A stretch of DNA of 64,000 nt from positions 24,806 to 88,805 of the forward strand of contig CAZBDY010000001.1 of assembly GCA_964490795.1 (NCBI GenBank). The letters are read 5' to 3'. This document shows, piece by piece, positions 5,537-52,633 of the stretch. Each line of letters begins with the position of its first letter. Within the stretch, counting starts at the first letter, position 1. Under the pieces are notes generated by a model that saw only the letters and a program-made list of their open reading frames with translations, was not told the origin of the DNA and made no database searches. The position numbers were made by a program, and so were the translations under genes. This stretch comes from Candidatus Woesearchaeota archaeon. GTDB taxonomy: Archaea > Nanobdellota > Nanobdellia > Pacearchaeales > GW2011-AR1.

Positions 5537-5793
5537 GCAGACCCAGGGTTTGCTCAAAACCGACTGATTAGTTTCAACAGGCATCCTCAGTTTTGCTACC
5601 CTGAAAGCACCTTAATCCTTAATTAGGGCTGCTCCGATCAAGGCCTGACCCGATTCATAAGGGCAAGGTCAAACAGGACAAAACTTCAACGTTATCCTGA
5701 TGTCTTTATCAACCAGTTTATCACTTGCCCCTTTAAGCCTGCCATAAAGCCCTATTTGCAAATAGCAGAGGGCTAACCTGCCAGCTTGTCTGC
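5537..5793 (-). ncRNA. signal recognition particle RNA (7S/SRP RNA)
   Basis: A GC-enriched ~290 bp ORF-free gap between two minus-strand genes. The 5' end GCAGAC(AAGCUGG) pairs with the 3' end (CCCUGGGU)CUGC, followed by a U-run (plus 5531-5536). The internal GGGUCAGGCC...GGAGCAGCC resembles the conserved helix-8 motif of SRP RNA (E. coli 4.5S GGUCAGGUCC..GGAAGCAGCC). An AT-rich TATA-like cttttaaa lies ~25 nt upstream. Confidence 0.6.
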
Positions 5794-12044: not shown

Positions 12045-14218
12045 TCCCCCCATAAATATATCTTAAAATCATTGATTTCTTTAATAAACTCAAATTTTTT
12101 ACCATATAAATAAAAATCTTCTAATTTTAATTGGTGAGTACATTTAAGGGATTCATCAGAAATGCAATAATGTTTAGTAACAAAATATCCTTCCATCGAA
12201 ATTTCAGTTGCTTTAACTAACTCATGAATATTGAAATATGAAGACTCAACAAACATATTTCTTCCAACATCATACCTTACTCCATTTTCTCTTAATAAGA
12301 ATCTTTTATCATCTATGGGATAATCTAACAAAAAAATAAATTCAGGATACTTGCCACCAAAAATCCAAGGAGTTTCGGAATCCCATTCTAAGTCATTTTT
12401 AATAAAATCAACAACCCCATACATATTAAACCTTCCAGTACCAATATTATCAATTTGTAAATTAGATATATCTTCTTTTTCATAAGCTTTTATTGGGTTA
12501 AGGGCATAATAAAATGAAGTAAGATTAAGAAATAATAAAATAATAATTAAAATTGAAAATAATTTCTGAACTTTTATTTTTTTATAATGTTGAAAAACGT
12601 AAATTAATGACATAGCAAGAATAATACAATAAATTGGAAAGAGAAAATAAATGTATCTTGTAGGGTTATAATCTATATGACTTTGATATTTAACTAAATA
12701 AAGGCATAGCCCAAAAAAGAATGAAGAATAAAATATATTTATTATGTTATTTTTCTTATCTTTTAAAAAATTAAACAACAAAGGGATTAAAAAAAGAGAA
12801 AAAATCAATAAAGTCGAAATTAAGTTATTATGAAACCATTGCCAAGGAGATTCTATCAAGGGATTAAAAAATACATCAAAATAAAATTTATCAAATGAAT
12901 AGCCCCTTACAAAAGGAAAATATTTTATAAAATAAATAGAAATAGCCCCAGCCACTAAAATAGTTAGGAAATATGTTTTTTTCAAGAAAGTAAGAGATTT
13001 TGAATTTCTTTTTAAACAATTTTTTAGAAAACCATAAAGAATAAAAATCCCTGTTACGAATGGAAAAATTATTACGATGAGTGTTTGTATTCTTCCATTA
13101 AAGCTGTTTAAAATATAAACAGAGATAGTTAAAATAAACAACCCAGTTAAACAATAAATGTTTTTTTTAATTTCCCCTTCTTTAGCTTTTTGATAAAGAT
13201 AAATAGAAAAATAAAGAATAATAACTCCTGCCATACAATCAAAAGAATAATCTCTAGTTACTTTTGATAAAATTATTGACCAAGGAGAAACGGCAAATAA
13301 AAGCATACTTAATAATGCAACTTTTTTATTTATGAATTTGGCAATAAAATAAATAAAGATTATTGTAATCAGACTATATAGTATGAAAGGCAATTTTAAT
13401 GCTCCAAAATTAAAACCAAAGATCTTTACAGATAGCAACATTAATTGAGTGCTTATTATAGAATACTTGTAGAAAGAATGTCCATTTTCATACAATGCTT
13501 TTACTGCGACATCATTATAATTGTCGCTTCCATCAATATAATCCAAAGAGTACAATCTTACTCCTAAAAAGAGAATTATCAATAAAATAAATAAGACACT
13601 ATACCACCACCCCTCCCCATACCCCCACTTAACAAAACTATATGGAAGCCTTGCAACCCAAATAAAAGGGCTGATTAAAATTCTTAAAATCCAGATAAAA
13701 TATCTTTTATTTTTCCAGGCATCTTTTATTTTATATTTAAAATTAAAAAACTTTAATCTAGGAAACTTATCATCAAACTCATTAAATCTCTTTTTCTCTG
13801 CTTTCTCCTCATTTTCTGTTTCTTCCTCAACCTCTTTCTCAACCTTGTTTCTATAAGCATAAAAAGCAAGAAAACCAAAAGCAATACTTAATGCAGTTAT
13901 TTCTGGAAGAAAATCAATTATAATCTGTCTTTTCAAAAACTGGTTTAAAGTAATTATAACTAATGATAAGATAAAAAAATGACTAAAATAATAAATCATC
14001 TTTGAATCTTTTCTTTTATTTTCAGGAATTTCTTTTATTTTTAAAGCAAGAAAAATTGTATTAATAGCAACAATAAAAAAGAAAATATAATTTAGATTAT
14101 TACTCCAAAACAAAGGCAAGAAGTTAAGAAAATTAAATAAAATTAATAAAACAAATAAAATATCTATTCCTATTGTTAAATGTTTTAAAATTTTATAATG
14201 TTTTAAATTTAGTTTCAT
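12041..14218 (-). CDS. large polytopic membrane protein with C-terminal soluble domain (possible GT-C-fold glycosyltransferase)
   Basis: 725 aa with many TM helices; GT-C call is weak. Confidence 0.3.
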   Translation of the reverse strand: MKLNLKHYKILKHLTIGIDILFVLLILFNFLNFLPLFWSNNLNYIFFFIVAINTIFLALKIKEIPENKRKDSKMIYYFSHFFILSLVIITLNQFLKRQIIIDFLPEITALSIAFGFLAFYAYRNKVEKEVEEETENEEKAEKKRFNEFDDKFPRLKFFNFKYKIKDAWKNKRYFIWILRILISPFIWVARLPYSFVKWGYGEGWWYSVLFILLIILFLGVRLYSLDYIDGSDNYNDVAVKALYENGHSFYKYSIISTQLMLLSVKIFGFNFGALKLPFILYSLITIIFIYFIAKFINKKVALLSMLLFAVSPWSIILSKVTRDYSFDCMAGVIILYFSIYLYQKAKEGEIKKNIYCLTGLFILTISVYILNSFNGRIQTLIVIIFPFVTGIFILYGFLKNCLKRNSKSLTFLKKTYFLTILVAGAISIYFIKYFPFVRGYSFDKFYFDVFFNPLIESPWQWFHNNLISTLLIFSLFLIPLLFNFLKDKKNNIINIFYSSFFFGLCLYLVKYQSHIDYNPTRYIYFLFPIYCIILAMSLIYVFQHYKKIKVQKLFSILIIILLFLNLTSFYYALNPIKAYEKEDISNLQIDNIGTGRFNMYGVVDFIKNDLEWDSETPWIFGGKYPEFIFLLDYPIDDKRFLLRENGVRYDVGRNMFVESSYFNIHELVKATEISMEGYFVTKHYCISDESLKCTHQLKLEDFYLYGKKFEFIKEINDFKIYLWGD

Positions 14219-15707
14219 CTTCTTTTAATATTAATTTAATTTCTTTAAAATATACTCTTAACTTATCTAATACCTGTATTTTGTATTTGTTTTTTCTATC
14301 TATAGTTATTTTCCCATTATAAGTAAATTTTCCATTTTCAATATCAAGTTTATTTTTATCAATAATAATTACATCAGAATCAATTAGTTTTTTATCACTT
14401 TCTTTTGGAAAATAAAACCAGTTTTCTTTTGATGGAGAGATTATATTTGAGTACACATTAACCATCCCTTCATTAATTTCAAAATTATACTCTCCTTTTT
14501 CTAATTCTTGTTCATATCTTTTACTTTTCCAATCTTCATCTAAATCAATTGTTTCTGTTTTTGTTCCTGTCTGTCTTATTTTCTGCTGTTTACTTTCCCA
14601 CCAATAATTAAATCCTATTTCTTGTTTAGAATTAACTTTAACATAAAAATCAAATTCATTTAAAGGCAAGATTTTATCTAAAATCAAAATCTTATTAGAA
14701 TTAATTTCTATATCTTTAATAGAAGAATCAGAAGCCTTATTATAATCATCTTTTATAAATTCAATATAATAAATATTCCTGTCAAGATTATTTAAAGTGA
14801 TTTCAAAATCCTGTTCATCTCCTTCTTCTCCTGTATCTTTTTTTATTCCATCATCTTCAAATACTTTATTATAAACTTCTTCTCCTTGGTAATTTGTTAT
14901 TTTAACATTATATTCATCTTTTCCCACATACCAGTTTAAATCCTGTTTTGTAAATTCTATATTTAAATTTCCATAAACATAAACAGCTAATTTTAAATTA
15001 TCCCTAAATTGTGTGTCAATTCTTGTTGTTGTTTTTTTATAATCTTGAATTATTGGAATTCCCCCTTTTAATTCAGCAAAACTATAAATTGAATTTCCAG
15101 GAAAATTATTATAAACAAAACTTTTAGCATTATCTGATTCTTGATATGAAGATTTTGTTAACTCTTTCTTAATCCAGATTTCTTCATCTTCAAACCCCTT
15201 TATTTTTTCATAATTTTTTAAATTCGGAATTATCAAATTATCATTAAAATAAATATCAGTTTCAGGTTTTATTACTGATAACTGAAAAATAGCAGAAATA
15301 TTTTCTGAAACAACTTTTTTAGGATTAAAAACAATATTAAATGGACCTTCTGATATAATCAATCTAACTGTCTCATTATTAATCTTAGTTTTTCCACCCA
15401 AAACATCTTTATCCATATATAAGCCTTTTAATTCATTTTCCATACTTAAATCAGAAGCAGATAAAGTATAAACTCCTGAAGTATTTACAGGGTTATTTGG
15501 CAACAAATTAGCAATTAAGAAATACCCCGCAATAATAAAAATAGCGAGATATAAGAAAATTACCACATACTGCTCTGGTTTTAACTCTTTTACTATTTGT
15601 TTAATGCTTCTTTTTTTCTTTTTTTCCCTGAATTTAAATATAATTATAAATAATAAGAAGATTTCTAATATCATTAATACCAGCAACATAGCTATTAATA
15701 GGTTCAT
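14193..15707 (-). CDS. N-terminally anchored extracellular protein, unknown function
   Basis: N-terminal TM helix then a ~450 aa hydrophilic domain. Confidence 0.4.
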   Translation of the reverse strand: MNLLIAMLLVLMILEIFLLFIIIFKFREKKKKRSIKQIVKELKPEQYVVIFLYLAIFIIAGYFLIANLLPNNPVNTSGVYTLSASDLSMENELKGLYMDKDVLGGKTKINNETVRLIISEGPFNIVFNPKKVVSENISAIFQLSVIKPETDIYFNDNLIIPNLKNYEKIKGFEDEEIWIKKELTKSSYQESDNAKSFVYNNFPGNSIYSFAELKGGIPIIQDYKKTTTRIDTQFRDNLKLAVYVYGNLNIEFTKQDLNWYVGKDEYNVKITNYQGEEVYNKVFEDDGIKKDTGEEGDEQDFEITLNNLDRNIYYIEFIKDDYNKASDSSIKDIEINSNKILILDKILPLNEFDFYVKVNSKQEIGFNYWWESKQQKIRQTGTKTETIDLDEDWKSKRYEQELEKGEYNFEINEGMVNVYSNIISPSKENWFYFPKESDKKLIDSDVIIIDKNKLDIENGKFTYNGKITIDRKNKYKIQVLDKLRVYFKEIKLILKEDETKFKTL

Positions 15708-31685: not shown

Positions 31686-31934
31686 TTATTTTTTTCTTAT
31701 TTTTTCATAACTTTTATATAAAGAAATTAAAGTTACTAAACAGACGAATATACTAAATATTGAAATTATTTTACTAAAAAATAAACTAATCAAAGAAATA
31801 ATAAAAAAGATAGAGATAATTAAAATAAACCACTTTCTTCCTTTTTCAAGTTCATCTTTTGTTAAGTAAGCTAATAAGTAACCTGCTGGAATTGCAAAAA
31901 AGATAATTAATATGCCTAAGATTATATTTATCAT
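31686..31934 (-). CDS. small membrane protein
   Basis: 82 aa, two TM helices. Confidence 0.3.
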   Translation of the reverse strand: MINIILGILIIFFAIPAGYLLAYLTKDELEKGRKWFILIISIFFIISLISLFFSKIISIFSIFVCLVTLISLYKSYEKIRKK

Positions 31935-32752
31935 AGGATATTATCTAAAGGAGACTTTATATTCTTTATTGATGCTTGGGATATTTGGGTATATATTTGT
32001 GTTGTTTTTATATTTGAATGTCCCAGAAGTTTTTGTATTATTCTTAAATCAGTTCCACCCTCAAGAAGATGTGTAGCAAAACTATGCCTTAGTAAATGAG
32101 GATAAACTCTTTTTTTAATTTTAGATTTTTTACCTGCATTTTTAATAATTTTGGCAATTGTTTTTTTAGTTAGTTTTCCTCCTTGATTTGAAGGAAATAA
32201 TATCTCTGAATTATTAAGTTTACAATAGTGTTCAAATTCTTCAGCAAGAGATTCAGGAATTTTAACAAATCTGTCTTTTTTACCTTTTGCAAGATTTATT
32301 TTTATTAATCCTTCTTCAAAATTTATATTATTTAATTTCAAATTAACAATCTCAGAAACTCTTAATCCGCACCCATAAAGAAGTTTAATTATAAGTTTAT
32401 GTTTTATGTTTGAAGTTACATCAATGAGTTTTTTAATTTCTTTAATAGTCAAAATTTCAGGAAGAGTTTTATTTCTTTTTGGATTTGGGATATCTAACTT
32501 TTTTCCCAAAACATTTTGAAAAAAATATTTAATAGTAAAAACATTATGGCTAACAGATGCAGGACTATCTTTTGATAATTTTTTAATAAGAAATTCCTTT
32601 GCACTTTCTTGATTAATCCCCTTATTTTCAGCAAACTCAAGATATTTTCCAACTTGATTTAAATAACCTTTAATTGTTTCTTTAGAATAATTCCTCAACT
32701 TCAAATTTTCTTCAAATTTGATTAACAATTCCCCCATAAATCTTAAAAACAA
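31931..32752 (-). CDS. xerA: tyrosine site-specific recombinase (XerA/XerC/D family)
   Basis: C-terminal catalytic region HLLRHSFATHLLEGGTDLRIIQKLLGHSNIKTTQIYTQ (R..HxxR..Y); 273 aa. Confidence 0.8.
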   Translation of the reverse strand: MFLRFMGELLIKFEENLKLRNYSKETIKGYLNQVGKYLEFAENKGINQESAKEFLIKKLSKDSPASVSHNVFTIKYFFQNVLGKKLDIPNPKRNKTLPEILTIKEIKKLIDVTSNIKHKLIIKLLYGCGLRVSEIVNLKLNNINFEEGLIKINLAKGKKDRFVKIPESLAEEFEHYCKLNNSEILFPSNQGGKLTKKTIAKIIKNAGKKSKIKKRVYPHLLRHSFATHLLEGGTDLRIIQKLLGHSNIKTTQIYTQISQASIKNIKSPLDNIL

Positions 32753-32834
32753 CTGAATTATATAAAGGTTACTAAAGCAACCTTAAAAGGATATATAACC
32801 TAGTAAAGGTTAATATCCAGAGTGTTATACGCAA

Positions 32835-32976
32835 TTAAATTTAATTTTCACGACTAGAAAACGGGAATTCTCTCTAAAAACTGAAAGGGCAATTTCTAAA
32901 AACTAAAGGGGTCGCCTTAGGTTGCTTCGCAACATATAGCTTGACTTCGTCAAGAAATTTATAGGGTCGCCGTTTT
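32835..32976. repeat. left arm of imperfect inverted repeat bracketing the metal/redox island
   Basis: Ordered blocks ttaaatttaattttc / gggaattctctct / aagggcaatttc / aaaggggtcgcc / gggtcgccgtttt recur in reverse complement at 40638-40839. It also contains triloop hairpins gttgc-ttc-gcaac and cttgac-ttc-gtcaag. Confidence 0.7.
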
Positions 32977-35237
32977 CACAACTTTTTCCTTCTCAACAAA
33001 TTAGCATTTGTAACAACAGTTATTGAAGAGGCAGCCATTGCAATTTCAGCAATTACTGGATGCAATAAGCCCAAGAATGCCAGTGGAATTGCAATAAGAT
33101 TGTAGGAATATGCCCAGAACAAATTCTGTTTTATTTTTTTAAATGTCGCTTTGCTTAATTTTATTGCAGAGACAACTCCGTCAAGATTTCCTCTTACTAA
33201 GACAATATCTCCTGATTCAATAGCAATATCTGTCCCAGTTCCCATTGCAATACCTACATTTGCCTGTTTTAATGCAGGAGCATCATTTATTCCATCACCA
33301 ACAAAAGCAACAAATCCTTTTTTTTGAAGTTGTTTTATTTTATCTGCTTTATCCTCTGGGAGAACATCTGCTATAACTTCGTCAATATTCACTTCTTTTG
33401 CAATTGCTTTTGCTGTCCTTTCATTATCTCCAGTTATCATAAGAGTCTTAAATCCAAGTTCATGAAGATCTTTAATTGCCTTTTTTGAATCTTCTTTTAA
33501 GGTATCTGCAACCGCCAAAATTCCAATTGCTTTTTTTTCAACAGCAACAATCATTGTTGTTTTTCCTTTGTTTTCAAATTCTTGAATCTCTTTTTCCATG
33601 TTCTTTATATTGACATTCTTTTCAGACATTAACTTTCTATTACCTATTATAACAGATTCTTTATTCAGCAATGCTTCAATTCCTCTTCCTCTTTGTATCT
33701 TGAAGTTAGATATTTTTTTAATTTTTAATTTCTTATTTTTTGCAGCCTCTACAATTGCTTTTGCAATGGGATGTTCTGAAGCAGATTCCAGTGATGCTGC
33801 AATTGTCAATAATTCTTTTTCTGAAATTGAAATTGCGTTTATATCAGTAAGTTCAGGTTTTCCTTTTGTGATTGTACCTGTTTTGTCAAAAACAATAAAT
33901 TTCACATCTTTCATTGTTTGTATTGCTTCTCCTCTTCGTATTAAAATTCCTCTTTCTGCACCCATTCCTGATGAAACCATCAGTGCAGTAGGAGTTGCTA
34001 ATCCTAAGGCACATGGGCAGGCAATCACTAAAACCGCAATTGCAGAAAATAAGGCAAGAGAGATAACTCCTATTTCTAGATTGATCCAAGGAATAAAACT
34101 AAAAAAAGATGCAATTGATTTAAAAAATTCGGGAAATACTAGCCAAGAGATAAATGAAAGAGATGCAATTACCAAAACAATAGGCACAAATATGCCTGTA
34201 ATTTTATCAGCGAGTTCTTGTATAGGAATTTTGCTTCCCTGTGCTTCTTCAACAAGTTTAATAATCTGGCTTAAAAAAGTATCTTTGCCTATTTTTGTTG
34301 TTTTTATATACAATATTCCATCTTGGTTAATTGTTGCTCCAATAACTTTATCTCCTTTGTGTTTATCAACTGGAAGAGATTCTCCTGAAACCATAGATTC
34401 ATCAACAGCAGATTCTCCTTTTACTACAATTCCATCTGTAGGAATTTTTTCTCCAGGCCTTACAACTAAAATATCACCCACTTTTACATCTTCCATTTTA
34501 ACTTCTTTTTCTTGTTTTCCTATAAGAATCCTGGCAGTTTTTGCCTCTAATTTCAATAATTTTTTTATTGCCTGGCTTGCTCTCCCTCTCGCTTTTGTTT
34601 CAATATATCTTCCAGTCAGGTGGAAAGCCATAATCATTGCCCCAACAGCCGCATAATTTTCTATTGGAAGCATTAAAATTTTTAGAGGACCTGTAACAAA
34701 GGCAGCAATTGTTCCGATTGCAATTAAAGAATCCATGTTAAAAGAAAAGTGTCTTATTGACTTTAATGCAGACTTTTGAGTGTTGTAACCTAAAATAAAA
34801 ATTACCGGAATTGCAAGAAGAATATACATTATATCTATTAATAAAATCATCTCCTTGCTTGTATCCATTGGCATAAAGAACATATGATAAATCATAAACA
34901 ACCCCAAAGGAGCTGCGAAGATCCAAGAGAATTTCATTTTCTTTTTTGCATTGCCCATTTCCTTTATTTCAGGGTCTATTTTATGATGTTTTTCTCCATC
35001 ATGAGAAGAAATATCTTTTCCAGTTTCTTCTTCTGGAAATGCCTTGTAATCTCCTGCATTTGAAACAGCATTTATAACTTTTTTGTCATCAACAAGTTCT
35101 GCTTCAACATAAAGTTTTTTTGTAGCAAAATTAACATATGCATTTTTTATTTCTTTTAATTTATTTACAGAAGTTTCTATATTCCTTGCACAACTTGCAC
35201 AATGCATTCCTTCAATTAAAAATATTTTTTTAGTCAT
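32976..35237 (-). CDS. copA: copper/heavy-metal translocating P1B-type ATPase
   Basis: N-terminal [18 protein letters not shown] transport motif [10 protein letters not shown], phosphorylation site DKTGTIT, hinge [10 protein letters not shown]. Confidence 0.9.
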
Positions 35238-35689
35238 TTTGACTCCTTTCTAAAAACAAATTTATTTATTAAAAACAAAGTTGCTATAGAAGTTATTGAA
35301 AGTTGTATTAAAGGAGTTAAGCCAATTCCAAAAATTATGGGCATAAATTCATTATATTGCCATGAATTAAATAATATGGCTTTAACTTCAATGAAGATAG
35401 CAAAAAGAATTCCAAATATTGCCAAAAAAGTATAATCTCTCTTTTTAGGATTGATTATCCAATTAAAGTCTCTATTAAAAAGTGAAACTAATAAGATCAT
35501 TATTCCAATGTACACAACATCACCTAATGTTGAAAAAAGTATTTTTGGAATAAAAAAATAGATATTGTTTTCTAAAGGCGGAATATTCCAGTTGTAAAGT
35601 ATACTATGGGAGACTTCCCAGAATAAATTAAGAAAAAATGAAAAAATTAATATCCCAAGTAAAGCATAAAATTTTTTTTGTTTTGTCAT
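35234..35689 (-). CDS. membrane protein, unknown
   Basis: 151 aa, 4 TM helices, overlaps copA start. Confidence 0.4.
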
Positions 35690-36003
35690 TCTCTACTCCT
35701 TGGATTTTCCACTAATATTAACAAAAAACTTGTATTTTCTTCTGCTTTTAATGAATGAACAGCATTTTCTTTCATATTGATAAAAACCCCTTCTTTCATT
35801 TCAATATCTTTTCCTTCTAAATTAAAAATTCCTTTTCCTTCAATAACATAGACATATCCTTGTTTTGTAGAAGTATGCTCGTTAATCTCTGTTCCCTTTG
35901 CCATACAAAATAAACCAACATCTGATTTTTCGTTTTTAAAAACCTCTTTACTTAAAACTCCTTCTTTAGGATATTCTATCATTTGCTTTATTTGTTTATT
36001 CAT
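35686..36003 (-). CDS. cupin-domain protein
   Basis: GYVYVIEGKGIF...AVHSLKAEENTSFLLIL is a two-motif cupin pattern. Confidence 0.5.
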   Translation of the reverse strand: MNKQIKQMIEYPKEGVLSKEVFKNEKSDVGLFCMAKGTEINEHTSTKQGYVYVIEGKGIFNLEGKDIEMKEGVFINMKENAVHSLKAEENTSFLLILVENPRSRE

Positions 36004-36090
36004 TTTTTAAACTCCTAACAAAATTAAGATGTTTCATTTCTTTGTTTATTCATTTTTTAAACTCCTAACAAAATTAAGATGTTTCATTTC
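35991..36090. repeat. perfect 50 bp tandem duplication (x2) spanning the hemerythrin stop and cupin start junction
   Basis: tttgtttattcattttttaaactcctaacaaaattaagatgtttcatttc occurs at 35991-36040 and again at 36041-36090, with a partial third unit following. Confidence 0.85.
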
Positions 36091-36651
36091 TTTGTTTTTA
36101 TTTATATTGGCAATTCTTTTGAATTTTTCCAACATTTCTTTTTCTATACTCTCATTTAATATATCATCAGCCATAGGATAAAGAATGTTATCTTCTTTGA
36201 AAATATGTTCTTGTATTAAGTTAGCATAACCTCTTGCATTTTCTATTAAACCCTGTTTATCATTCTTTTCTAGAGATTCTTCCATGCCTTTTACAAAATT
36301 TCTTCCCTCGTCATGTTCAGATAACATTTGTTCAACTGGATTGCAATGCAAACATTCAGAATCTTTCTCTGCGCATTTATTAAATTCCTTAAATAAAATC
36401 TCTTCTTCTTTTGCATGATGAAATTTATCAGCATAATTTCTAATAAAATCAATTATCTTTCTAAAAAAATCTTTATCAATTTCCTTTCTAAAAAAATCTT
36501 TATCAATTTCCTTTCCATTCTCAATTAGATCACATTCTTTTGTTAAGGCATCAACTACTTTCAAGATATTTTCATGCTCCTTTGTTAAAATCCTGGAGCT
36601 TTCTCGTTTTATTTTCTTTTGAAACATTTTTATTATTCCTAGTTTAACCAA
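36046..36651 (-). CDS. hemerythrin-like (HHE cation-binding) protein
   Basis: H..E..H spacing (HHAKEEEILF, LSEHDEGRNF, HIFKEDN); contains an in-frame 27 bp duplication encoding EIDKDFFRK twice. Confidence 0.45.
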   Translation of the reverse strand: MVKLGIIKMFQKKIKRESSRILTKEHENILKVVDALTKECDLIENGKEIDKDFFRKEIDKDFFRKIIDFIRNYADKFHHAKEEEILFKEFNKCAEKDSECLHCNPVEQMLSEHDEGRNFVKGMEESLEKNDKQGLIENARGYANLIQEHIFKEDNILYPMADDILNESIEKEMLEKFKRIANINKNKEMKHLNFVRSLKNE

Positions 36652-36967
36652 AAGTTAAAATTTTGTCTGATTCTTCAACTAATTTTAACAAGTCTTTCAT
36701 GGTTGAAATTGGACAAACTTTACTACCTTCTTTTTCTCTTGATTCTAAGCAAGTTCCACAAGCTAATATTTGCCCTTGGTTATCAAGAAATAAATCGGTT
36801 TGTTCTTTTACATTATACTTCTCATCCTTAATACTTTCAATTTCAACGCCTTTATTTATTAAGAAAACTTTTACTTCATGATTTGCTTTTAATGATGTAT
36901 TTCCAAATCTGAAAGCATTCCAAACAACTTCTGGTTCATTTGTGCTTATTATTATTCCAAGTTTCAT
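36644..36967 (-). CDS. DsrE/DsrF (YchN)-like small protein
   Basis: MKLGIIISTNEPEVVWNAFRF N-terminus and a conserved Cys typical of the DsrE-like fold. Confidence 0.35.
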   Translation of the reverse strand: MKLGIIISTNEPEVVWNAFRFGNTSLKANHEVKVFLINKGVEIESIKDEKYNVKEQTDLFLDNQGQILACGTCLESREKEGSKVCPISTMKDLLKLVEESDKILTFG

Positions 36968-37185
36968 TTTTTATCTTCCTGCAATTGTTTAATCAACCAC
37001 ATAATAGAGAGTATTAATACTACAAAAATAAGAAACATAAAAATCCAACCAAATCCCATCATAGGCATCATTCCATAACTACTATTTAATCTTCCTCCAA
37101 AGCCAAACACCCCTAAAAATAAAAATGCAGTTACTGCGATTATTATTCCAATCAATAAATTATTATTTTTTTTCATATCTCGCAC
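36964..37185 (-). CDS. small membrane protein
   Basis: 73 aa, two TM helices. Confidence 0.3.
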   Translation of the reverse strand: MRDMKKNNNLLIGIIIAVTAFLFLGVFGFGGRLNSSYGMMPMMGFGWIFMFLIFVVLILSIMWLIKQLQEDKK

Positions 37186-37511
37186 ACCCCACCATCAGTT
37201 GAAGTACATCTGCCTTCTTCTATCCCTTTTTTGCATTGAGGACATACTTTATCAAACTCTTTATTTTTTATCATATCATCACAATAACAGCTTCCATCTT
37301 CCCATATCCAATTACCAAGATAGCACATTGTACATGGTGGCTCTATGCAACAATCATATCTTCCAATTTCCTTTGCATCTTCAATATTACTAAACAACTG
37401 ATTTAATAAAAGTTCTCTTTTTGTTTCAAAATTTCTTTGATTTGTAAATACCAAAAGTGAGCTAAATACAATAAGAAAGGCAAGGATTGATATTAAAAAT
37501 ATTCTTTTCAT
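37173..37511 (-). CDS. secreted cysteine-rich protein
   Basis: Signal/TM, then 12 Cys including CCIEPPCTMC. Confidence 0.35.
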   Translation of the reverse strand: MKRIFLISILAFLIVFSSLLVFTNQRNFETKRELLLNQLFSNIEDAKEIGRYDCCIEPPCTMCYLGNWIWEDGSCYCDDMIKNKEFDKVCPQCKKGIEEGRCTSTDGGVCEI

Positions 37512-37864
37512 TCTAATTCACATCCTGAAATTTGAGCAAGTCTACCAAGTTGTTGCAGACCAGGATAATTTTCTCCATTTATTTTCCAAGTTGGATAGCC
37601 CGTTACTCCGGCAGATTGACATTCCTGCTTGTTTTTATCACAATCCCTAAAATCCACATATTTAAATGAACTTCCAAATAAATCTTTTTGTCTTTGGCAA
37701 TAGCTACACCATCCTGTCCCATACATTACAACTTCTTTTTCAGTCAGGCACTGAGCAAATTCATCATATTGTCCAATTGAATCAGGTTTAAAAAATAAGT
37801 AAATAAGTATTGCTAATAAAAAGACCCCTCCAAATATCAAAATATTTCTGGTTAATTTTTTCAT
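37508..37864 (-). CDS. membrane-anchored thioredoxin/glutaredoxin-like protein
   Basis: N-terminal TM, CxxC active site GTGWCSYCQRQ. Confidence 0.5.
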   Translation of the reverse strand: MKKLTRNILIFGGVFLLAILIYLFFKPDSIGQYDEFAQCLTEKEVVMYGTGWCSYCQRQKDLFGSSFKYVDFRDCDKNKQECQSAGVTGYPTWKINGENYPGLQQLGRLAQISGCELE

Positions 37865-38319
37865 TTGAATCTATAAGCTCCCTTTTTTAAATCAGATATC
37901 TTAATTATCAAGTTGTCCCCTTCTATTTTGCTTGGCAAATAACCTGGCCAGCATCCACCACCACGAAGATTTTCTGTTCCTAAACCAGAAATAGGATATC
38001 TGTTTCCGCAATTATTACAAATCATAAAATCCCCTTCTTGTCTATACCCTTTTCTGCTTCCATAACAAACATCACAGGCATCAAAAGCTGTTTTTATTGT
38101 TCCATCTTTTGCCTTAACTACAAAATATTTTATTTTGATTCTACTCGAATCATATTCGTACCATTCTGCATTTTCAGATATTTCTGGTAAGGATATTTTT
38201 ATAGTTTCATCAGAATTTTTTATTGTATTTCCAGTTATATCTGATTTTCCTGAAAACAGAAAAAAAACACCAGCTAATAACAAGACAACTACAGATAAGA
38301 TTAATATTATTTTTGTCAT
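37861..38319 (-). CDS. membrane-anchored Cys-cluster protein (DUF2318-like)
   Basis: N-terminal TM; CDVCYG...CNNCGN double CxxC. Confidence 0.35.
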   Translation of the reverse strand: MTKIILILSVVVLLLAGVFFLFSGKSDITGNTIKNSDETIKISLPEISENAEWYEYDSSRIKIKYFVVKAKDGTIKTAFDACDVCYGSRKGYRQEGDFMICNNCGNRYPISGLGTENLRGGGCWPGYLPSKIEGDNLIIKISDLKKGAYRFK

Positions 38320-39212
38320 CTTGCTAAAACTCCCTCAATTGCTTGTTGAAATACATCATATTGCTGAGCTCCTGAAATTAATTTATATCCTTGTTCTGAA
38401 TTTCCAATTAAAAATCCAGGTGTTCCAGTGATTCCAAGAGATTGCCCAAATGAAGTTGATTGGCTAACTTGTGTTTTATATTTTCCAGAGTTTAAACATT
38501 CATTAAATGAAGTTTCATCTGCTCCTGTCTGAACAGCTAACCCAGATAATAGTGAGGGATTACTTCTCACTTCTTGTTGATTCTCTAAAATTAATCCAAA
38601 CATCTCCCAGAAAGCCTCATCTCCATTTAATTCTCTCACACAAAGTGCAGCCTCATGAGGTGTTGAGGTCCCCACACCAACAAAATCAGCGAAAATATGT
38701 TTAACTAGCCCTTTATCAATATAATTCTCTTTTATTAGGGGTTTTGTTTGAAGATAATGCCTCTGGCAAAAAGGACAACTAAAATCAGTGAATTCAATAA
38801 TTGTAACAGGTGCATCTTTATCACCCAAATAAGCATAATTTTCAATCTGAGACTCTTCAACATTAACTCTTTGGCCTTGTTGTACTTGTTGAGTTTGTTG
38901 TTGAGAAATTTGTGTTGGTTGAGAGATTAAAGGAGAAATCTCTTGAATAAAATATTCTCCATCTTTAGTTATATAAACTGGAATGTTTTGCCCCTCATAT
39001 AAAACAGTTATTTTATACAAATTTCCTAGATCTTGTGAATCAACAAAACTAATTCCACCTTCAGTTAAACTATTTAGATATTCTACTATTTTTGTTGATG
39101 CAGATTTTTCAGAGATAGTTCCTCCCCTAAATCCAAATGCTCCTATTAATACTATAAGCAGCAGAATTGCTGAGATTATCTGCCATATCCTTATATTATT
39201 TATTTTTTTCAT
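38316..39212 (-). CDS. DsbA-like thiol:disulfide oxidoreductase (thioredoxin fold), membrane-anchored
   Basis: N-terminal TM, Q-rich linker, CPFC active site FSCPFCQRHY. Confidence 0.55.
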   Translation of the reverse strand: MKKINNIRIWQIISAILLLIVLIGAFGFRGGTISEKSASTKIVEYLNSLTEGGISFVDSQDLGNLYKITVLYEGQNIPVYITKDGEYFIQEISPLISQPTQISQQQTQQVQQGQRVNVEESQIENYAYLGDKDAPVTIIEFTDFSCPFCQRHYLQTKPLIKENYIDKGLVKHIFADFVGVGTSTPHEAALCVRELNGDEAFWEMFGLILENQQEVRSNPSLLSGLAVQTGADETSFNECLNSGKYKTQVSQSTSFGQSLGITGTPGFLIGNSEQGYKLISGAQQYDVFQQAIEGVLAR

Positions 39213-39252
39213 TTGCTCAACCTCTGAATATTTTTTATTTTTTGTTCCATTT

Positions 39253-40023
39253 TTATTTTCCTAAACTGCAAGTTGGACTTCCACAGCTCCCCCCACAAGA
39301 TGAAGATCCTCCACATCCTCCTGAACAGCTTCCTTCGGTATTATCTGCTAATTTTTGTACTTCCTGAATTTGGGTGTTTTGAGAATCACTAATTAAGGTG
39401 GCGGGATATTCCTCAAAAACCTCTAATCCTAAAATCTCATCTACAGAGGTTTTACTTTTATCATACTTTACTTCAAAATTATTTGGGAAAGAGTATTTTA
39501 CATCAATAATTCCGTCAATAGTTTTTATTTCATTTGAAATTAGAGGTGCATGACCTGGGCAAGGAATATCTGATTTTAAACTAATTGTTCCTAAATTTTC
39601 AGGATTTCCATCAAACACAACAGCTCCAGTCAGAGAAACATTTGCCAAAAGCGGAAATACAAAAAAGAAAAGAATCAAATTAATCCCTATGGTTGAGCCA
39701 TACATTATAGATAAATATCCTTTCTTTTTCTTAATCCCTTCCCAAGATAATAATTTATTTTTCCTTAGATATAGGAAAGACGATAGTGTTGCAAATCCTA
39801 CTGAAAGCAATATTAAATAGTGAAAGATATATCTATTCATCAAGAAAGGCCTAAAAAACTGCATTAATATCGTTGCTCCTAAAACTGCACCTATAATAAA
39901 CATAATACATCCAATATGAGGGATTATACCATAAGCTATTCCCATTAAAGGGTTATTTCCCTTATATTCTTTTTTTGGCTTGCAACAATCGGGCAAGTTT
40001 TGATTATTTGATTTTTCTTCCAT
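39253..40023 (-). CDS. membrane protein with HMA-like domain and Cys/Gly-rich C-terminal tail
   Basis: N-terminal CC pair, 4-5 TM helices, IPCPGHAPLISNEIKTIDGIIDVKY (HMA-like) and C-terminal CSGGCGGSSSCGGSCGSPTC. Confidence 0.35.
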   Translation of the reverse strand: MEEKSNNQNLPDCCKPKKEYKGNNPLMGIAYGIIPHIGCIMFIIGAVLGATILMQFFRPFLMNRYIFHYLILLSVGFATLSSFLYLRKNKLLSWEGIKKKKGYLSIMYGSTIGINLILFFFVFPLLANVSLTGAVVFDGNPENLGTISLKSDIPCPGHAPLISNEIKTIDGIIDVKYSFPNNFEVKYDKSKTSVDEILGLEVFEEYPATLISDSQNTQIQEVQKLADNTEGSCSGGCGGSSSCGGSCGSPTCSLGK

Positions 40024-40076
40024 AACAGGAGGTAGAATGAAACACCTTATAAGCGATTGTATGAAACTAGTTTCAG

Positions 40077-40583
40077 TTAGTGTTTAAGAATAATAATATT
40101 AGTCATGCCTCTTCTTTTTCTTTCAACTAAACCTTTCCCTTCTAATCTATCTAACAAACGAGTAACTTTGACTTTTGTAAGTTTTGATTTATCTACCAAA
40201 TCTGATTGAAATATTGTTCCATCTGCTTCCACAATCTTCTCAAAGATAAGTTTTTCATCATCACTTAAATCACTCATTACTTTCTGATAATTTTCTTTTG
40301 TAATCTTTTTAGGCTCAATTTGTTGTTTAATTGTTTTGACTTTTGTAATTATTTTTTCTTCTATCCCAAAGAATACTAAATATAATCCAATTATAATTAT
40401 AAAGACCATTATCCCTATACTCATGTTAGTCTGAAAATTTATTGAACCCCACATTGGGCAGGTAGAGCCATGTTCACAAGAAGTATTAATAATCTCAGTC
40501 ATTGCTCTATTAAAAGAGAATATTATAAAACCTATTAGTGCTGCTATTCCTAAAACTATAAATCCTGCAATTCGGTTCTTCAT
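40077..40583 (-). CDS. membrane-anchored winged-helix transcriptional regulator
   Basis: Two N-terminal TM helices with a CEHGSTCPMWG Cys pair between them; C-terminal wHTH LSDDEKLIFEKIVEADGTIFQSDLVDKSKLTKVKVTRLLDRLEGKGLVERKRRG. Confidence 0.5.
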   Translation of the reverse strand: MKNRIAGFIVLGIAALIGFIIFSFNRAMTEIINTSCEHGSTCPMWGSINFQTNMSIGIMVFIIIIGLYLVFFGIEEKIITKVKTIKQQIEPKKITKENYQKVMSDLSDDEKLIFEKIVEADGTIFQSDLVDKSKLTKVKVTRLLDRLEGKGLVERKRRGMTNIIILKH

Positions 40584-40637
40584 ATTATAGGGAATAAATA
40601 ATCTTATTTAAATATCTTCTTATTTTTTTTAGGGGTT

Positions 40638-40839
40638 AAACGGCGACCCCAAAACATCTTCTTTTTTCCAAAAAAGAAGCAAAAAAGGACGGCGACCCCT
40701 TTAAGATTTGACTGAAAAGCACTATCGTGCTAAAAACGAAATTGCCCTTAATGTTTTAATAGAAAGCCCTACGGGCTAGAGAGAGAATTCCCTTAAAAGA
40801 TACTCTTGCTACGCAAGAATTGATAGAAAATTAAATTTA
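40638..40839. repeat. right arm of inverted repeat (reverse-complement copy of 32835-32976 with insertions)
   Basis: Reverse complement reads ttaaatttaattttc ... gggaattctctct ... aagggcaatttc ... aaaggggtcgcc ... ggggtcgccgttt; inserted hairpins agccc-tac-gggct and cttgc-tac-gcaag. Confidence 0.7.
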
Positions 40840-41147
40840 ACTTCTCCGGTTTTTTGCTACGCAAAAAATCCTCGACCCCACTGCGTTCTCCTCGCTTTGC
40901 TCGTCGGGGCGTATAACAGCACTTTAAAGAGAAATGCCTCAGCTCGGCATTTCTCCAAATTTTTTCTCAGCTCTGAAAATTTTGCCAGCTCTGTTTCACG
41001 AGGGCAAAATTTTCGAGGAGAAAAAACTTCTTTAAATGCGATGTTCTTAGCAATAAAAATGAAGTTTTTTACCCGCCCAATTTTGAAGAGAACACTATCT
41101 ACTTTAGCATACAAATCTTTTTATATCCCTTCTTCTTTTCTTTCGTC

Positions 41148-41588
41148 ATGGATATTGTCAACCAAGTTGCAGATGAATTAGAGAAAAGAGGACAAGAAAG
41201 AATTTCTGGACATCTTTATGGGCTTCGACATGAACTTATAGGAAAGCCTTGTTTATATTCTTGTGATGGAGATTTAAAACCTGCAATTCCTTATGGTGCT
41301 TATAGATTAGATAAAGATGCAGAAATTCATGTTGCCGAATATAAACAAGGAAAACCACTTTTAGCTATCGCTTATTTTGATTCTCATTCATCTTGCGAAG
41401 GTTCAAATGTTCATGTCAAAGCACTTTCCGCAGTTAGTCCCGATGACTTAATTCCTGTCGACCCGTCTTCAAGAAGAGGACAGGAAATTTCTCATATAAT
41501 TCTTTCTTGGTTGGTTGACAATCGTGATGGAACTTTTAGAGCAGAAGAAAGAAGAAGGAAAAGACTTGAACAAGAAGTAACTGCTTAA
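41148..41588 (+). CDS. hypothetical protein (GC-shifted cassette gene)
   Basis: 146 aa non-repetitive ORF flanked by repeat modules; no recognised motifs. Confidence 0.35.
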   Translation: MDIVNQVADELEKRGQERISGHLYGLRHELIGKPCLYSCDGDLKPAIPYGAYRLDKDAEIHVAEYKQGKPLLAIAYFDSHSSCEGSNVHVKALSAVSPDDLIPVDPSSRRGQEISHIILSWLVDNRDGTFRAEERRRKRLEQEVTA

Positions 41589-41918
41589 TTTTGCGATAGT
41601 GTTCTCTCCTATTTTAATTTTCCCACCCTAAAACTTCATTTTTACTTCTTCGAAAAATCAAAGATTTTTCTCGACCACGTCCTGCGGACTTTCGCACTGC
41701 GGTGCTCAGGGCTAAGAACAGGGCTTAAACAGAAAATCCTTGCAGGATTTTCCCAAATTTTTTCTTTCAGAAAAAACTCTCGAGGTCACTTCGTTCTGCT
41801 CGAGCCCTACGGGTTGTTTAAGCCCGATTCAACGAAATTTTTTGCTCCACAAAAAACTCTGCGCGAGATTAATTTTAGTTATTCTATTCCCCACCCGAAG
41901 GATGTGCCTTAGAAAGAT

Positions 41919-42197
41919 TTACTGAGAATATGCATCAGGGAATGTATTTAATACGCCTAAAGCCCCATAAGTAGGAATTGGGTCAGTAGCTCCAACAAGA
42001 AAACCTCTAACCATTCTATCTACACTTTTTTTATCGTCTGCACTACCGCCAAGTATTTGTACAAGTCCTTCAGACCCGCCACAAGCATTTAACATTCTTC
42101 CTGTTGCACCCGAAATGTCATCAGTCATACCATAGTCTAAGAATCTCTGTCTTAGTCTTTGTAACATTTCATTAAGTACTGCATTTCCATCTACCAT
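41919..42197 (-). CDS. hypothetical small protein
   Basis: 92 aa, Gly-rich; lies between repeat modules. Confidence 0.3.
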   Translation of the reverse strand: MVDGNAVLNEMLQRLRQRFLDYGMTDDISGATGRMLNACGGSEGLVQILGGSADDKKSVDRMVRGFLVGATDPIPTYGALGVLNTFPDAYSQ

Positions 42198-42536
42198 GTT
42201 TTTAAGAATGCAAATGCCCTATATAAATATTTCTATATGTAACTACTATTAAAGGATAAAGGCACATCCTCCCCCACCCTTAAAATTAGTCTAAAATTAA
42301 TCTCGCTTGCCACGCCTTGCAGGCTTTCAGAAAATCAAAGATTTTCTTCAGGTCGCTGAACAGCGATTAAAAAGAAATTTCTTGCAGAAATTTCCCATAT
42401 TTTTGCTACGCAAAAACACTCGAGGTCACTTCGTTCCACTCGAGCCCTTCGGGTTGTTTAATCGCGATGTTAATTGCAATATTACTCGGTGGCAAAACAG
42501 CATAAATTTATTAAAGCCCTCTTATTCTAATACACT

Positions 42537-42809
42537 ATGAGAAAATTAATCGACAAAGCTGCTGAATTTTTGGATGATTTAGCTTGGAAATTATCTCCTC
42601 ATCCAGATTTGCCAATTGGCGAACCAGTTTGTAATGTTTCTGATGAAACTAATGAATGGAATAAGAGGGCTTTGGAACATGCTTGGCGACCAGGAAATGG
42701 TTTAATTCCTTATAGAAGAGAGTTCTCTCAAGAAGAAATGCAAAAAATGCAAGAGAGAACTTATGAAATGAATCGCCAAGCACTAGACTATGCTAATAGC
42801 CAAAGATAG
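42537..42809 (+). CDS. hypothetical small protein
   Basis: 90 aa ORF downstream of a repeat module. Confidence 0.3.
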   Translation: MRKLIDKAAEFLDDLAWKLSPHPDLPIGEPVCNVSDETNEWNKRALEHAWRPGNGLIPYRREFSQEEMQKMQERTYEMNRQALDYANSQR

Positions 42810-42842
42810 TTTTTTGCCCCTGCGTCATACTGTGCCTACGCT

Positions 42843-44878: not shown

Positions 44879-45511
44879 TTTCGTGTAGCGTCTTCTTTTT
44901 AGAAAAAAGAAGCAAAAAGATGGAAATCCCCATTTTCTTTTTTTAAGAAAAAAAGAAACAAAAAAAGCACGCGTCTCTCTAATACATAGCCCACCCAAAA
45001 AATATTATTTCAAAATTTTATAAAACGGCATTCTCAAAAACTTTGATTCGCTAAAAAACTTTCAGTTTTTGGCGCCCCAAAAATCTACGATTTTTTAGGG
45101 TTTTGCCTTCGGCATCGTTGCACTAAAAATCAATCCTAACGGAGAGTTTAACAAATTTAGAGATTCCAGAAACTTGCAGTTTCTTCCATCCAAATTTTTG
45201 CTTCGCAAAAACTTCTCTAAATCCTGATGTTATGTCTAATTGTTCGAAGGCACTAAACTTTGAAAATTAAAGATAGTTAAAGATGGCACTTCAATACCCC
45301 CCGACCACCCGCCCCAATTAGGAGATGTGTGCTTTCGTGCTACGCACATTTAGTCAAAATCAAAGATTTTGAAATTTATAATTAAATTTTTTTCCACTCT
45401 AGAGAGACTCGCGGTTTTCCTGAAGGAAAACAGATAGTCGGCTTACGCCGATTAATTAGTTGTAACTATAAAGTAAGAAAGATTTAAATAATCTTTTTAG
45501 TATTTTAGAAT

Positions 45512-49386: not shown

Positions 49387-50120
49387 GACCTCTGATATGT
49401 TGCAGTGTTGAAAATTTAAAGGAATTTTCTTTTGAAGATTATCCATTTGAGGGGTATGAATTTAAGACTTTTGGAAGAGGATTTAGTCCAAACATAATCT
49501 TATTAATAAAATTAAAAGAAATGTTTAAAGGAAAAGAATTATCTTTGCATAGCCAATTAAGTAGAATTTTTAGTTCTAGAGAAAAGGGTTTTCCAGAATT
49601 TTCTGAAGCAGAAATGAATATCTTAAAATCTGAGATAATTATTTCAAAAATTATAGGAATTAAGCAGATAAATTTTCATATGAAAGAAACAGAATTTACT
49701 GAAGATGAAACCAAAAAATTCAATGAAATTATAAATTTTGCTAATAAAAATGGAATAGAGATGATTTATGAAAACCATGTTTGTTCAGAGGAAGTGATCT
49801 TTAGAGTTCTAAAAAATTTCCCGAGGATTCAATTTTGTTTAGATATAGGTCATTTAAATGTAGCAGTCCACATGGGTAAATTTAAAATGAATCTGGATGA
49901 ATTTCTGGAAAAGGTAAAATCGAGATTAGTTCATATTCATGCACATAACAATTACGGAGAAAAAGATGAACATAATTCTTTAGACGAAGGAAATTTTAAT
50001 TGGAGAAATGTTTTAGATTACTTAGGTAAGGATCATTTAAAAAAAGTAATTATTGAATCCAAGAAAAAAGAAGATATATTAAAATCAAAAAAATTATTAT
50101 TAAACTACTTTAAAGAATAA
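49383..50120 (+). CDS. xylose-isomerase-like TIM-barrel enzyme (sugar-phosphate isomerase/epimerase; AP-endonuclease-2 fold)
   Basis: Metal-binding pattern CLDIGHLN ... HIHAHNN ... DEHNSLDEG; start overlaps the upstream stop by 4 nt. Confidence 0.5.
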   Translation: MRPLICCSVENLKEFSFEDYPFEGYEFKTFGRGFSPNIILLIKLKEMFKGKELSLHSQLSRIFSSREKGFPEFSEAEMNILKSEIIISKIIGIKQINFHMKETEFTEDETKKFNEIINFANKNGIEMIYENHVCSEEVIFRVLKNFPRIQFCLDIGHLNVAVHMGKFKMNLDEFLEKVKSRLVHIHAHNNYGEKDEHNSLDEGNFNWRNVLDYLGKDHLKKVIIESKKKEDILKSKKLLLNYFKE

Positions 50121-50618
50121 AACTTTCGCTTTTCGTAGCGACTTCTTTTAGAAAAAGAAGCAAAAGCGAGTCTCTCCACCTCAAAAAATTTATTTTCTTT
50201 TTAGAAAAAAGAAACAAAAAAGAGCGCGTGCCCTAAAAGATAGTCTTCTACGAAGATAATTTATATAATAAAACTCAAACTCAACTCTGCGGTTTTTTCT
50301 TTTCAAGAAAAAATCCTCGGGGACGTCTTGCAGACTTTCGCTTCTCTCACCCTCTTTTTTCGGGACACATTTTTCCCAAATTTTTCCTTCGGAAAAACTC
50401 TCGAGCGTTCCACAATTTTTCCAGCTCTGACTTCGTCGAGGGAAAAATTTCTACACCTCGAGCCCTACGGGTTTTTTAATCGCGATGTTCAACTCAATAA
50501 ATTTCTGGCGGTAACTCAATACCCCTCCCTCCTGCATTACCTAATTAATTCTAAAAATTATAAAAGAAAAGATTTATATAGTATTTCTTACATATCTTAC
50601 TATTAAGAGGAAAATAAA

Positions 50619-52454: not shown

Positions 52455-52633
52455 AAATCCCCATTTTCTTTTTTAGAAAGAAAGAAACAAAAAAGCACAC
52501 CTCAAATTTTATGGGATGGCTATTTGCCCGCGACCCGCTCTTTCTAATTGATAAAAAGTTACTGAAAAAGCAAATCACTCGACCCACCAAAAACTAAGAG
52601 AGATTTTAGAAATATTATATGCTCTTTTTCAAA

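Follow-up and report, generated by a model that had tools for sequence, protein, structure and literature searches.

The stretch analysed here, called the window throughout, comprises 64,000 nucleotides of contig CAZBDY010000001.1 from a Candidatus Woesearchaeota archaeon (assembly GCA_964490795.1). It has a G+C content of 28%, and its best protein matches are to metagenome-assembled genomes of Woesearchaeota, Pacearchaeota, and Nanoarchaeota, which makes its placement in DPANN reasonable. Within it, a copper/redox operon is bracketed by the two arms of an inverted repeat, and a gene for a tyrosine recombinase, XerA, begins 85 bp outside the left arm, where the original prediction had seen a recombinase. 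The layout of the locus is as follows (positions are those of the window; labels such as L148 are our designations of contigs).

31931–32737, minus strand: XerA tyrosine recombinase gene, with its ATG confirmed at 32737 and its own TATA box, TTTATATA, at 32759–32766 (position −29)
32823–32976, plus strand: left (downstream) arm, in which blocks b0 to b5 read 5' to 3'; it is the copA 3' flank on the operon sense (minus) strand, with orthologous arms in L148, L149, L084, and L087
32976–40583, minus strand: copper/redox operon of 12 genes, from a winged helix-turn-helix (wHTH) regulator to CopA
40638–40918, minus strand: right (upstream) arm, with blocks b0 to b5 on the minus strand and, compared with the left arm, five insertions that bear hairpins; orthologous arms in L147, L148, L149, L087, L152, and L084

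All 12 open reading frames (ORFs) between the arms lie on the minus strand. From the copA end, they encode a CopA-type P1B ATPase, a 151-aa transmembrane (TM) protein, a cupin, a hemerythrin, a DsrE protein, a 73-aa TM protein, a Cys-rich protein of 112 aa, Trx-like, FtrD-like, and DsbA-like proteins, a Cys-rich TM protein of 256 aa, and a membrane-anchored MarR/DUF7343 wHTH regulator. The copper/redox content is as originally described, with a count of 12 in place of about ten co-directional genes.

We compared the arms by chaining colinear exact matches of at least 10 nt and by affine-gap global alignment. The inverted repeat is real: the arms share six colinear exact blocks, 75 nt in total, in reverse-complement order.

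b0 (TGTTATACGC), 32823–32832 on the plus strand and 40918–40909 on the minus strand: a sixth block that extends both arms outward, beyond the five named previously
b1, 32835–32849 on the plus strand and 40840–40826 on the minus strand
b2, 32863–32875 on the plus strand and 40792–40780 on the minus strand
b3, 32885–32896 on the plus strand and 40749–40738 on the minus strand
b4, 32904–32916 on the plus strand and 40703–40691 on the minus strand
b5, 32964–32975 on the plus strand and 40649–40638 on the minus strand

All five previously named blocks were recovered as exact matches, bearing out the claim that the same ordered blocks form true inverted repeats. In 2000 shuffles, the chained exact matches had a mean of 1.2 and a maximum of 21, and comparison of the left arm with every other 360-nt stretch of the window, on both strands, gave chains of at most 23. 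The backbone of the arms is 88% identical (122 matches and 17 mismatches in the global alignment). The right arm is about 130 nt longer than the left, with five insertions that each carry a small hairpin structure: three are hairpins looped by GTA, GTA, and GATA, one is the T-rich hairpin, and one is a 68-nt piece that contains two hairpins. The arms are a moderately diverged inverted duplication carrying hairpin insertions. Exact blocks alternate with unrelated spacers because small hairpin modules were inserted between the shared blocks, mostly in the upstream copy.

The innermost block is a box of about 13 nt, GGGGTCGCYGTTT, which faces inward at both ends of the operon. The boxes, the promoter, and the hairpins are arranged as follows.

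32904–32916, plus strand: downstream copy of box 4, reading GGCGACCCCTTTA on the sense strand and followed by a T5 run
32921–32954, minus strand: two small hairpins between the downstream boxes, CTTGAC-GAA-GTCAAG and GTTGC-GAA-GCAAC on the sense strand
32964–32975, plus strand: downstream copy of box 5; the sense strand reads stop codon, AAAC, and GGCGACCC
40605–40612, minus strand: operon TATA box (TTTAAATA), starting 29 nt before the ATG
40638–40649, minus strand: upstream copy of box 5 (GGGTCGCCGTTT), ending 28–29 nt before the TATA box
40655–40690, minus strand: T-rich, terminator-like hairpin between the two upstream boxes (TTTTTTGCTTCTTTTTT-GG-AAAAAAGAAG), kept in all box-bearing relatives
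40691–40703, minus strand: upstream copy of box 4 (TAAAGGGGTCGCC)
40718–40817, minus strand: three hairpin insertions between b1 and b2, b2 and b3, and b3 and b4 of the right arm, with GTA, GTA, and GATA loops that are altered in L147
40841–40908, minus strand: insertion of 68 nt that separates b0 from b1 in the right arm and shares homology with part of a multi-hairpin element at 42378–42500

TATA-like matches across the genes of the window peak at −31 to −27 before the start codons. The operon TATA box, at −29, is in the position typical of leaderless genes here; the operon mRNA is therefore predicted to be leaderless, with the upstream arm lying outside it. The spacing of 27–29 nt between box 5 and the TATA box is kept in seven lineages, and the position of the downstream box, four bases after the copA stop codon, in six lineages that between them carry two CopA subfamilies. 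Most lineages have each box in two copies with an inserted hairpin between them.

The repeats are not a generic intergenic motif, in agreement with the original prediction. At zero mismatches the blocks are confined to the two arm sites in the window (GGGGTCGCC gave three matches against zero expected), and in 1.35 Mb of low-GC related loci together with the window, GGGGTCGC[CT] is almost confined to the ends of the operon. Although the blocks are mirrored, the hairpins and T-runs of both arms are strand-specific for the operon sense strand. Predicted folds of the minus strand were always more stable than those of the plus strand, even beside plus-strand genes, which is probably a composition effect. 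In the second downstream hairpin, both sides of the stem are altered in relatives (GTGC/GCAC and GCGC/GCGC). Kin of the T-rich hairpin occur elsewhere in the window at 44891–44918, 52462–52498, and 50192–50241, directly behind the stop codons of other genes, and the region of the 68-nt insertion (40851–40935) matches 42400–42480 in the multi-hairpin element with an E-value of 8.6e-6. No Rfam match was found at the arms or at 40.5–42.9 kb, either at the gathering threshold or at E ≤ 5, where only noise appeared; no tRNA gene lies at the arm boundaries; and scans of the arms for sigma-70 and terminator consensus sequences added little, the host being an archaeon.

The hairpin insertions are edged by short direct repeats, GGGGTCGCC...GGGGTCGCC and AGATTTTGGGT...ATATTTGGGGT (boxes 4 and 5 of both arms in the window; L087 at 9514–9585 versus 13417–13451; L149), and the downstream arm of L087 holds an 'empty' single-box state. 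This pattern points to one of two events: an insertion that duplicated its target, or a deletion between short repeats.

The original prediction linked the repeats to the neighbouring recombinase, envisaging a segment that is inverted or excised by XerA-like recombination at the arms. Inverted repeats do bracket the segment, the recombinase gene is close by, and an imperfect 30-bp palindrome, GGATATATAACC-TAGTAA-AGGTTAATATCC, lies between that gene and the left arm, at 32789–32818. However, the recombinase scores 241.2 bits on NF040815, the NCBIfam equivalog model of archaeal XerA (cutoff 220), and falls below the cutoff of each of the XerC, XerD, and integron-integrase models. Passing the equivalog threshold indicates a housekeeping enzyme of chromosome resolution. 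No tyrosine recombinase is encoded beside the downstream arm in any arm-bearing relative, L084 having only an unrelated 437-aa integrase 6 kb upstream of its module; the adjacency in the window is therefore incidental, and the arms are independent of XerA.

A dif site consists of imperfect inverted arms of about 11 bp around a 6-bp spacer (PMC2958812). We scanned for palindromes of two 11-bp arms, matching at 9 or more of 11 positions, around spacers of 5 to 8 bp, the kind of site for which the original prediction had suggested checking the repeat cores. None was found in 32740–33000, only an unrelated hairpin (40928–40956) appeared in 40600–41000, and the shared blocks were free of any. The 30-bp palindrome is outside the repeat, just upstream of the xerA TATA box, and a search for a second copy found none in the window. 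A second palindrome, AAGGTT/AACCTT, is present at 32767–32786. These xerA-proximal palindromes could serve as an operator for XerA or as a dif-like site.

The module keeps one orientation with respect to its flanks in three related species represented by 3, 3, and 4 independent assemblies (L087/88/89, L084/85/86, and L090/91/92/95), and three assemblies of the window strain have the same arrangement as the window; neither flipped copies nor empty sites were found in these ten relative assemblies and three assemblies of the strain. Same-strain Logan contigs do break near the arms: L003 and L155 overlap by exactly 30 nt (k−1) at 32797–32826, and L001 and L002 start at 40958. These breaks are graph branch points just outside the arms, and no alternative junction was retrieved. 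Exact identities between the arms do not exceed 15 nt. Moreover, the operon is complete with its own TATA box, start codon, and 3' T-runs, so that inverting it would have no effect on expression. XerA-mediated inversion or excision is the least supported of the explanations considered, and we regard it as most improbable.

We then compared the locus among relatives, defined as contigs with regulators 83–95% identical to that of the window and fetched from a regulator search whose 1266 matches show how very widespread this protein is. Regulator identity is 95% in L147, 88% in L148, and about 84–85% in L149, L087–89, and L152–154. A scan of GTDB genomes with CopA yielded only relatives of at most 63% identity, none of which carried any block. 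The window, L147, L148, L149, L087–89, and L152–154 have the same upstream layout, which is degenerate in L084: box GGGGTCGCC, T-rich hairpin, box GGGGTCGCYGTTT, 27–29 nt, TTTAAATA, 21–22 nt, and ATG. Downstream, the sense strand reads stop codon and AAA(C/G/T)(G/A)GC(G/A)ACC in the window, L148, L149, L084, L087, and L090 (degenerate in L090), and in the window, L148, L149, and L084 two small hairpins and then another inverted box come after it. A repeat search independently found long-range inverted pairs in L148 (20 nt), L149 (26 nt and 17 nt), and L087 (17 nt). Blocks b2 and b3 are also present in the downstream arm of L148. L087 and L149 have another sequence as their outer matched block, TAGATTTTGGGTTTTAA, of 17 nt and 100% identity between the arms; as in the window, a hairpin insertion parts it from the box only in the upstream arm. 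The upstream outer block of L152 has diverged to TGAGTTTGAGTTTTG.

Box-bearing lineages differ by about 17% in the DNA of the regulator gene and by 42% in the neighbouring TM protein. The box is kept at fixed distances despite this divergence, at which neutral DNA would be expected to be barely alignable (about 55% identical), indicating selection. This bears on the idea that the backbone outside the boxes is a functionless relic, left by an inverted duplication or by recombination among hairpin-rich intergenic modules in a mosaic like those of repetitive extragenic palindromes and bacterial interspersed mosaic elements (REP/BIME), with selection acting only on a generic terminator function. 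Such an origin would fit the intergenic DNA of the window and its relatives, which is full of repeated hairpin modules at many sites. It would also fit the restriction of the outer blocks to close relatives, and the blocks themselves are partly an ascertainment effect, being runs of identity within an 88% identical alignment. It does not fit the conservation of the box across lineages or its specificity for this operon. Furthermore, the paralogous arms (88%) are at least as similar as the orthologous arms of the window and L148 (roughly 75–80% by visual estimate rather than computation), even though the repeat predates the split of these lineages. A relic as the whole explanation seems to us distinctly unlikely, but it plausibly accounts for the outer backbone, as opposed to the box.

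Flanking genes differ in every lineage, and so does the cargo: some lineages carry superoxide dismutase and an HMA protein, L148 a 124-aa protein and a cupin, and the window a long Dsb/Trx/DsrE/hemerythrin set. The ATPases belong to two subfamilies that are only 46% identical, yet both share their last codons (LLRRKKL*) and the downstream arm. Conserved ends around variable cargo in changing genomic contexts are what would be expected if the arms were the ends of a non-autonomous, horizontally exchanged copper-resistance cassette, with terminal inverted repeats, two subterminal boxes per end, and mobilisation in trans; a mobile module lacking its own transposase was the second possibility raised by the original prediction. 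The repeated boxes in mirror-image ends, the patchy decay of the module (L084, L090, and L093), and the tendency of short contigs to break just outside both arms point the same way. So does the unusual conservation of the regulator gene (40077–40583), which retains 80–93% DNA identity across lineages, far more than its neighbours do (protein identity is about 58% for the TM protein beside it and about 46% for CopA).

On the other hand, target-site duplications are missing, with no direct repeats at either proposed end (the flanks are CCAGAG and GCACTT in the window, and TCGAAG and TTGAAA in L087), no transposase lies in or beside the module at any locus, and no empty site or second copy was seen in the 64 kb of this genome that is visible. 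The spacing of the boxes to the TATA box and to the stop codon is constant, linking the innermost repeat with gene expression and not with the termini of an element. In L147 and L084, homology runs beyond the outermost block, L087 and L090 share distal upstream synteny, and hairpin modules present in many copies would account for the contig breaks just as well. When viral contigs were scanned for the double box, the only matches were two in GC-rich DNA, both attributable to chance. We also considered a 36-nt direct repeat around the L087 module as an attL/attR pair and rejected it; it is a generic multi-copy hairpin with four copies in 2.2 kb of L152. Overall, a transposon-like cassette is in our judgement rather improbable. 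More doubtful still is the version in which the arms would be working ends of a recombinase-less cassette with swappable cargo, moved in trans by a host enzyme such as XerA or another, as an archaeal counterpart of pdif modules and integrative mobile elements exploiting Xer (IMEX).

The hairpins raise a further alternative, in which a structured non-coding RNA runs over the upstream arm in the sense direction, ends at the T-rich hairpin between boxes 4 and 5, and pairs with the 3' untranslated region (UTR) of copA, controlling mRNA stability or 3' processing. The sense strand of the upstream arm, GGGGUCGCC, is perfectly complementary to the 3' UTR, GGCGACCCC. The outer blocks, which are lineage-specific, vary in sequence from one lineage to another but agree between the arms of each genome, and L084 has GGTTGCC in both copies of box 4. 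In both lineages the upstream copy holds extra hairpins and the downstream copy is compact, and hairpin stems alter on both sides, for example GAGAAATGCC/GGCATTTCTC in the window versus GAGCCCC/GGGGC in L084. In addition, no co-directional gene ends at the place upstream of the promoter that holds the conserved terminator hairpin, which implies, for this model, that some non-coding transcript does.

Several observations argue against such an RNA. No conserved promoter was found for it; TATA-like b1 is confined to the window lineage (the window and L147), with a predicted start inside a hairpin. Structure prediction for a putative RNA of the upstream arm leaves the blocks no more single-stranded than average. 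L149 has C/A mismatches in the nested pairing, and b3 is mismatched in L148 and deleted in L147. Intramolecular 5'-3' pairing is excluded by the leaderless operon mRNA. We therefore consider RNA pairing unlikely.

Judged from their sequences, the arms mark the two boundaries, upstream and downstream, of a self-contained copper-efflux/redox operon that occurs in a single clade of DPANN archaea of the Woesearchaeota/Pacearchaeota type. We tentatively favour, at somewhat less than even confidence, the interpretation that they are operon-specific boundary elements composed of a recognition box and terminator hairpins. The selected core would be the box of about 13 nt, a putative DNA-level recognition site for a trans-acting factor. 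The small hairpin modules inserted between the shared blocks are of the kind that crowds the intergenic DNA of this lineage. The most economical candidate for the factor is the operon's own membrane-anchored wHTH regulator, whose two binding sites would lie upstream, at about −60, and at the operon end. The hairpins and T-runs would terminate transcription and insulate the operon from its neighbours, and XerA would be a housekeeping bystander.

Four points weigh against this interpretation. First, upstream boxes are absent where regulators are about 81–83% identical or lower (L093, L094, L090, L132, and others); the existence of box-free close regulators indicates that the element is clade-specific and dispensable, and that the box may not be the main operator. 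Second, the stretch between the TATA box and the ATG is conserved and could be the real operator. Third, the GGGGTCGCY box is not palindromic, unlike typical wHTH operators. Finally, a protein-binding site leaves the matching lineage-specific outer blocks unexplained, namely b2 and b3 in the window and L148, and the 17-nt block at 100% identity in L087 and L149.

Other features of the enclosed genes were also observed. Between its two TM helices, the regulator, a protein of 168 aa with its soluble wHTH domain at about residues 95–168, has a Cys/His/Met-rich loop (SCEHGSTCPMWG) that is a candidate metal sensor. Similarity in the DNA at the copA 3' end begins about 25 nt ahead of the stop codon and continues into the downstream arm (window 32976–33010; L084, L087, L090, and L149), and a closer CopA homologue in a contig without arms (L150, 77%) has a different 3' end, which suggests that the CopA gene was replaced, with the junction placed at its extreme 3' end. 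At 35982–36081 and 36448–36501 lie two tandem repeats: a duplication of 50 nt (94%) over the start of the cupin gene and the region upstream of it, and an in-frame repeat of 27 nt inside the hemerythrin gene (KDFFRKEID/KDFFRKIID). Logan contigs break at both.

Intergenic DNA beyond the arms is rich in structured sequences. Recurring families of small GC-rich and T-rich hairpins form REP/BIME-like mosaics at 44880–45260, 50120–50480, 52455–52600, 41589–41918, and 42198–42536, and relatives have hairpin families of their own, such as ATTGAAACTAAC...GTTAG, with four copies in 2.2 kb of L152. A structured element of about 105–120 nt, in which four hairpins are enclosed in a closing stem of 9–10 bp, occurs on the minus strand of the window at 41715–41835 and 42378–42500 and in L084 at about 14470–14580. 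Its closing stem is GGGCTTAAAC/GTTTAAGCCC in one copy and GCGATTAAA/TTTAATCGC in the other; the stems differ on both sides, and linkers such as TTTGGGAAA are unchanged. Neither of the two copies in the window has an Rfam match. These copies lie in a stretch of about 2 kb to the right of the right arm (40850–42840), which has a G+C content of 36–41% versus 25–33% and contains three ORFs, of 146, 92, and 90 aa, none of them matched in Pfam, NCBIfam, or PHROG. An inverted repeat of 10 bp (GGATGTGCC/GGCACATCC) lies around the 92-aa gene, and the whole stretch may be foreign DNA. Elsewhere, a signal recognition particle (SRP) RNA at 5537–5793 on the minus strand scores just above threshold on the bacterial large SRP model and not on the archaeal one.

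No account of repeats flanking an operon in this way in DPANN archaea turned up in a literature search, in line with the original prediction, but several known systems are similar in part. In the metal-resistance transposons Tn21 and Tn501 (mer), an operon with its own regulator at one end is likewise bracketed by inverted repeats, and the cargo varies. Our locus differs from them in having no transposase, resolvase, or target duplications, in its repeats, which are mosaics of 150–280 nt versus 25–38 bp, in the locking of the innermost repeat to the TATA box and stop codon, and in the lack of any second copy or empty site seen. IMEX and the pdif modules of Acinetobacter are recombinase-less gene modules with short bounding sites that lie next to, or rely on, host Xer, and pdif modules are bounded by inverted sites. 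In the arms, by contrast, there is no dif-like site of 11, 6, and 11 bp, the adjacency to XerA is not conserved, and the sole palindrome near xerA is single-copy and outside the repeat.

Bacterial REP/BIME elements consist of small GC-rich hairpins with conserved linkers, often at operon 3' ends and with terminator or stabiliser roles, and the hairpin modules described here are likewise multi-copy, as illustrated by the T-rich hairpin, which recurs at 44.9, 50.2, and 52.5 kb, and by the ATTGAAACTAAC hairpin of L087 and L152. Blocks b0 to b5, by contrast, are unique in the window; together with the GGGGTCGCY box they are single-locus and operon-specific, forming one long-range inverted pair instead of local doublets, and no RAYT-like gene was seen. 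Archaeal rRNA processing stems and the interplay of 5' and 3' UTRs in haloarchaea also involve inverted repeats that flank a transcription unit and match within a genome. Here, however, the promoter predicts a leaderless transcript that leaves out the upstream arm, bulge-helix-bulge geometry is missing, and the unit is a protein-coding operon of 4–8 kb.

The cis-elements of DPANN archaea are almost unstudied, and none of these archaea is genetically tractable. The locus provides a conserved, operon-specific pair of elements whose positions are defined: one lies at about −60 relative to a leaderless start site, the other four bases behind the final stop codon. It also illustrates that a recombinase gene beside inverted repeats is no evidence of a mobile or invertible segment. 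If the two elements are bridged by a protein or joined by RNA pairing, an archaeal operon would here be delimited or controlled in a new way; if they are the ends of a cassette, they would show how metal resistance spreads among ultra-small archaea.

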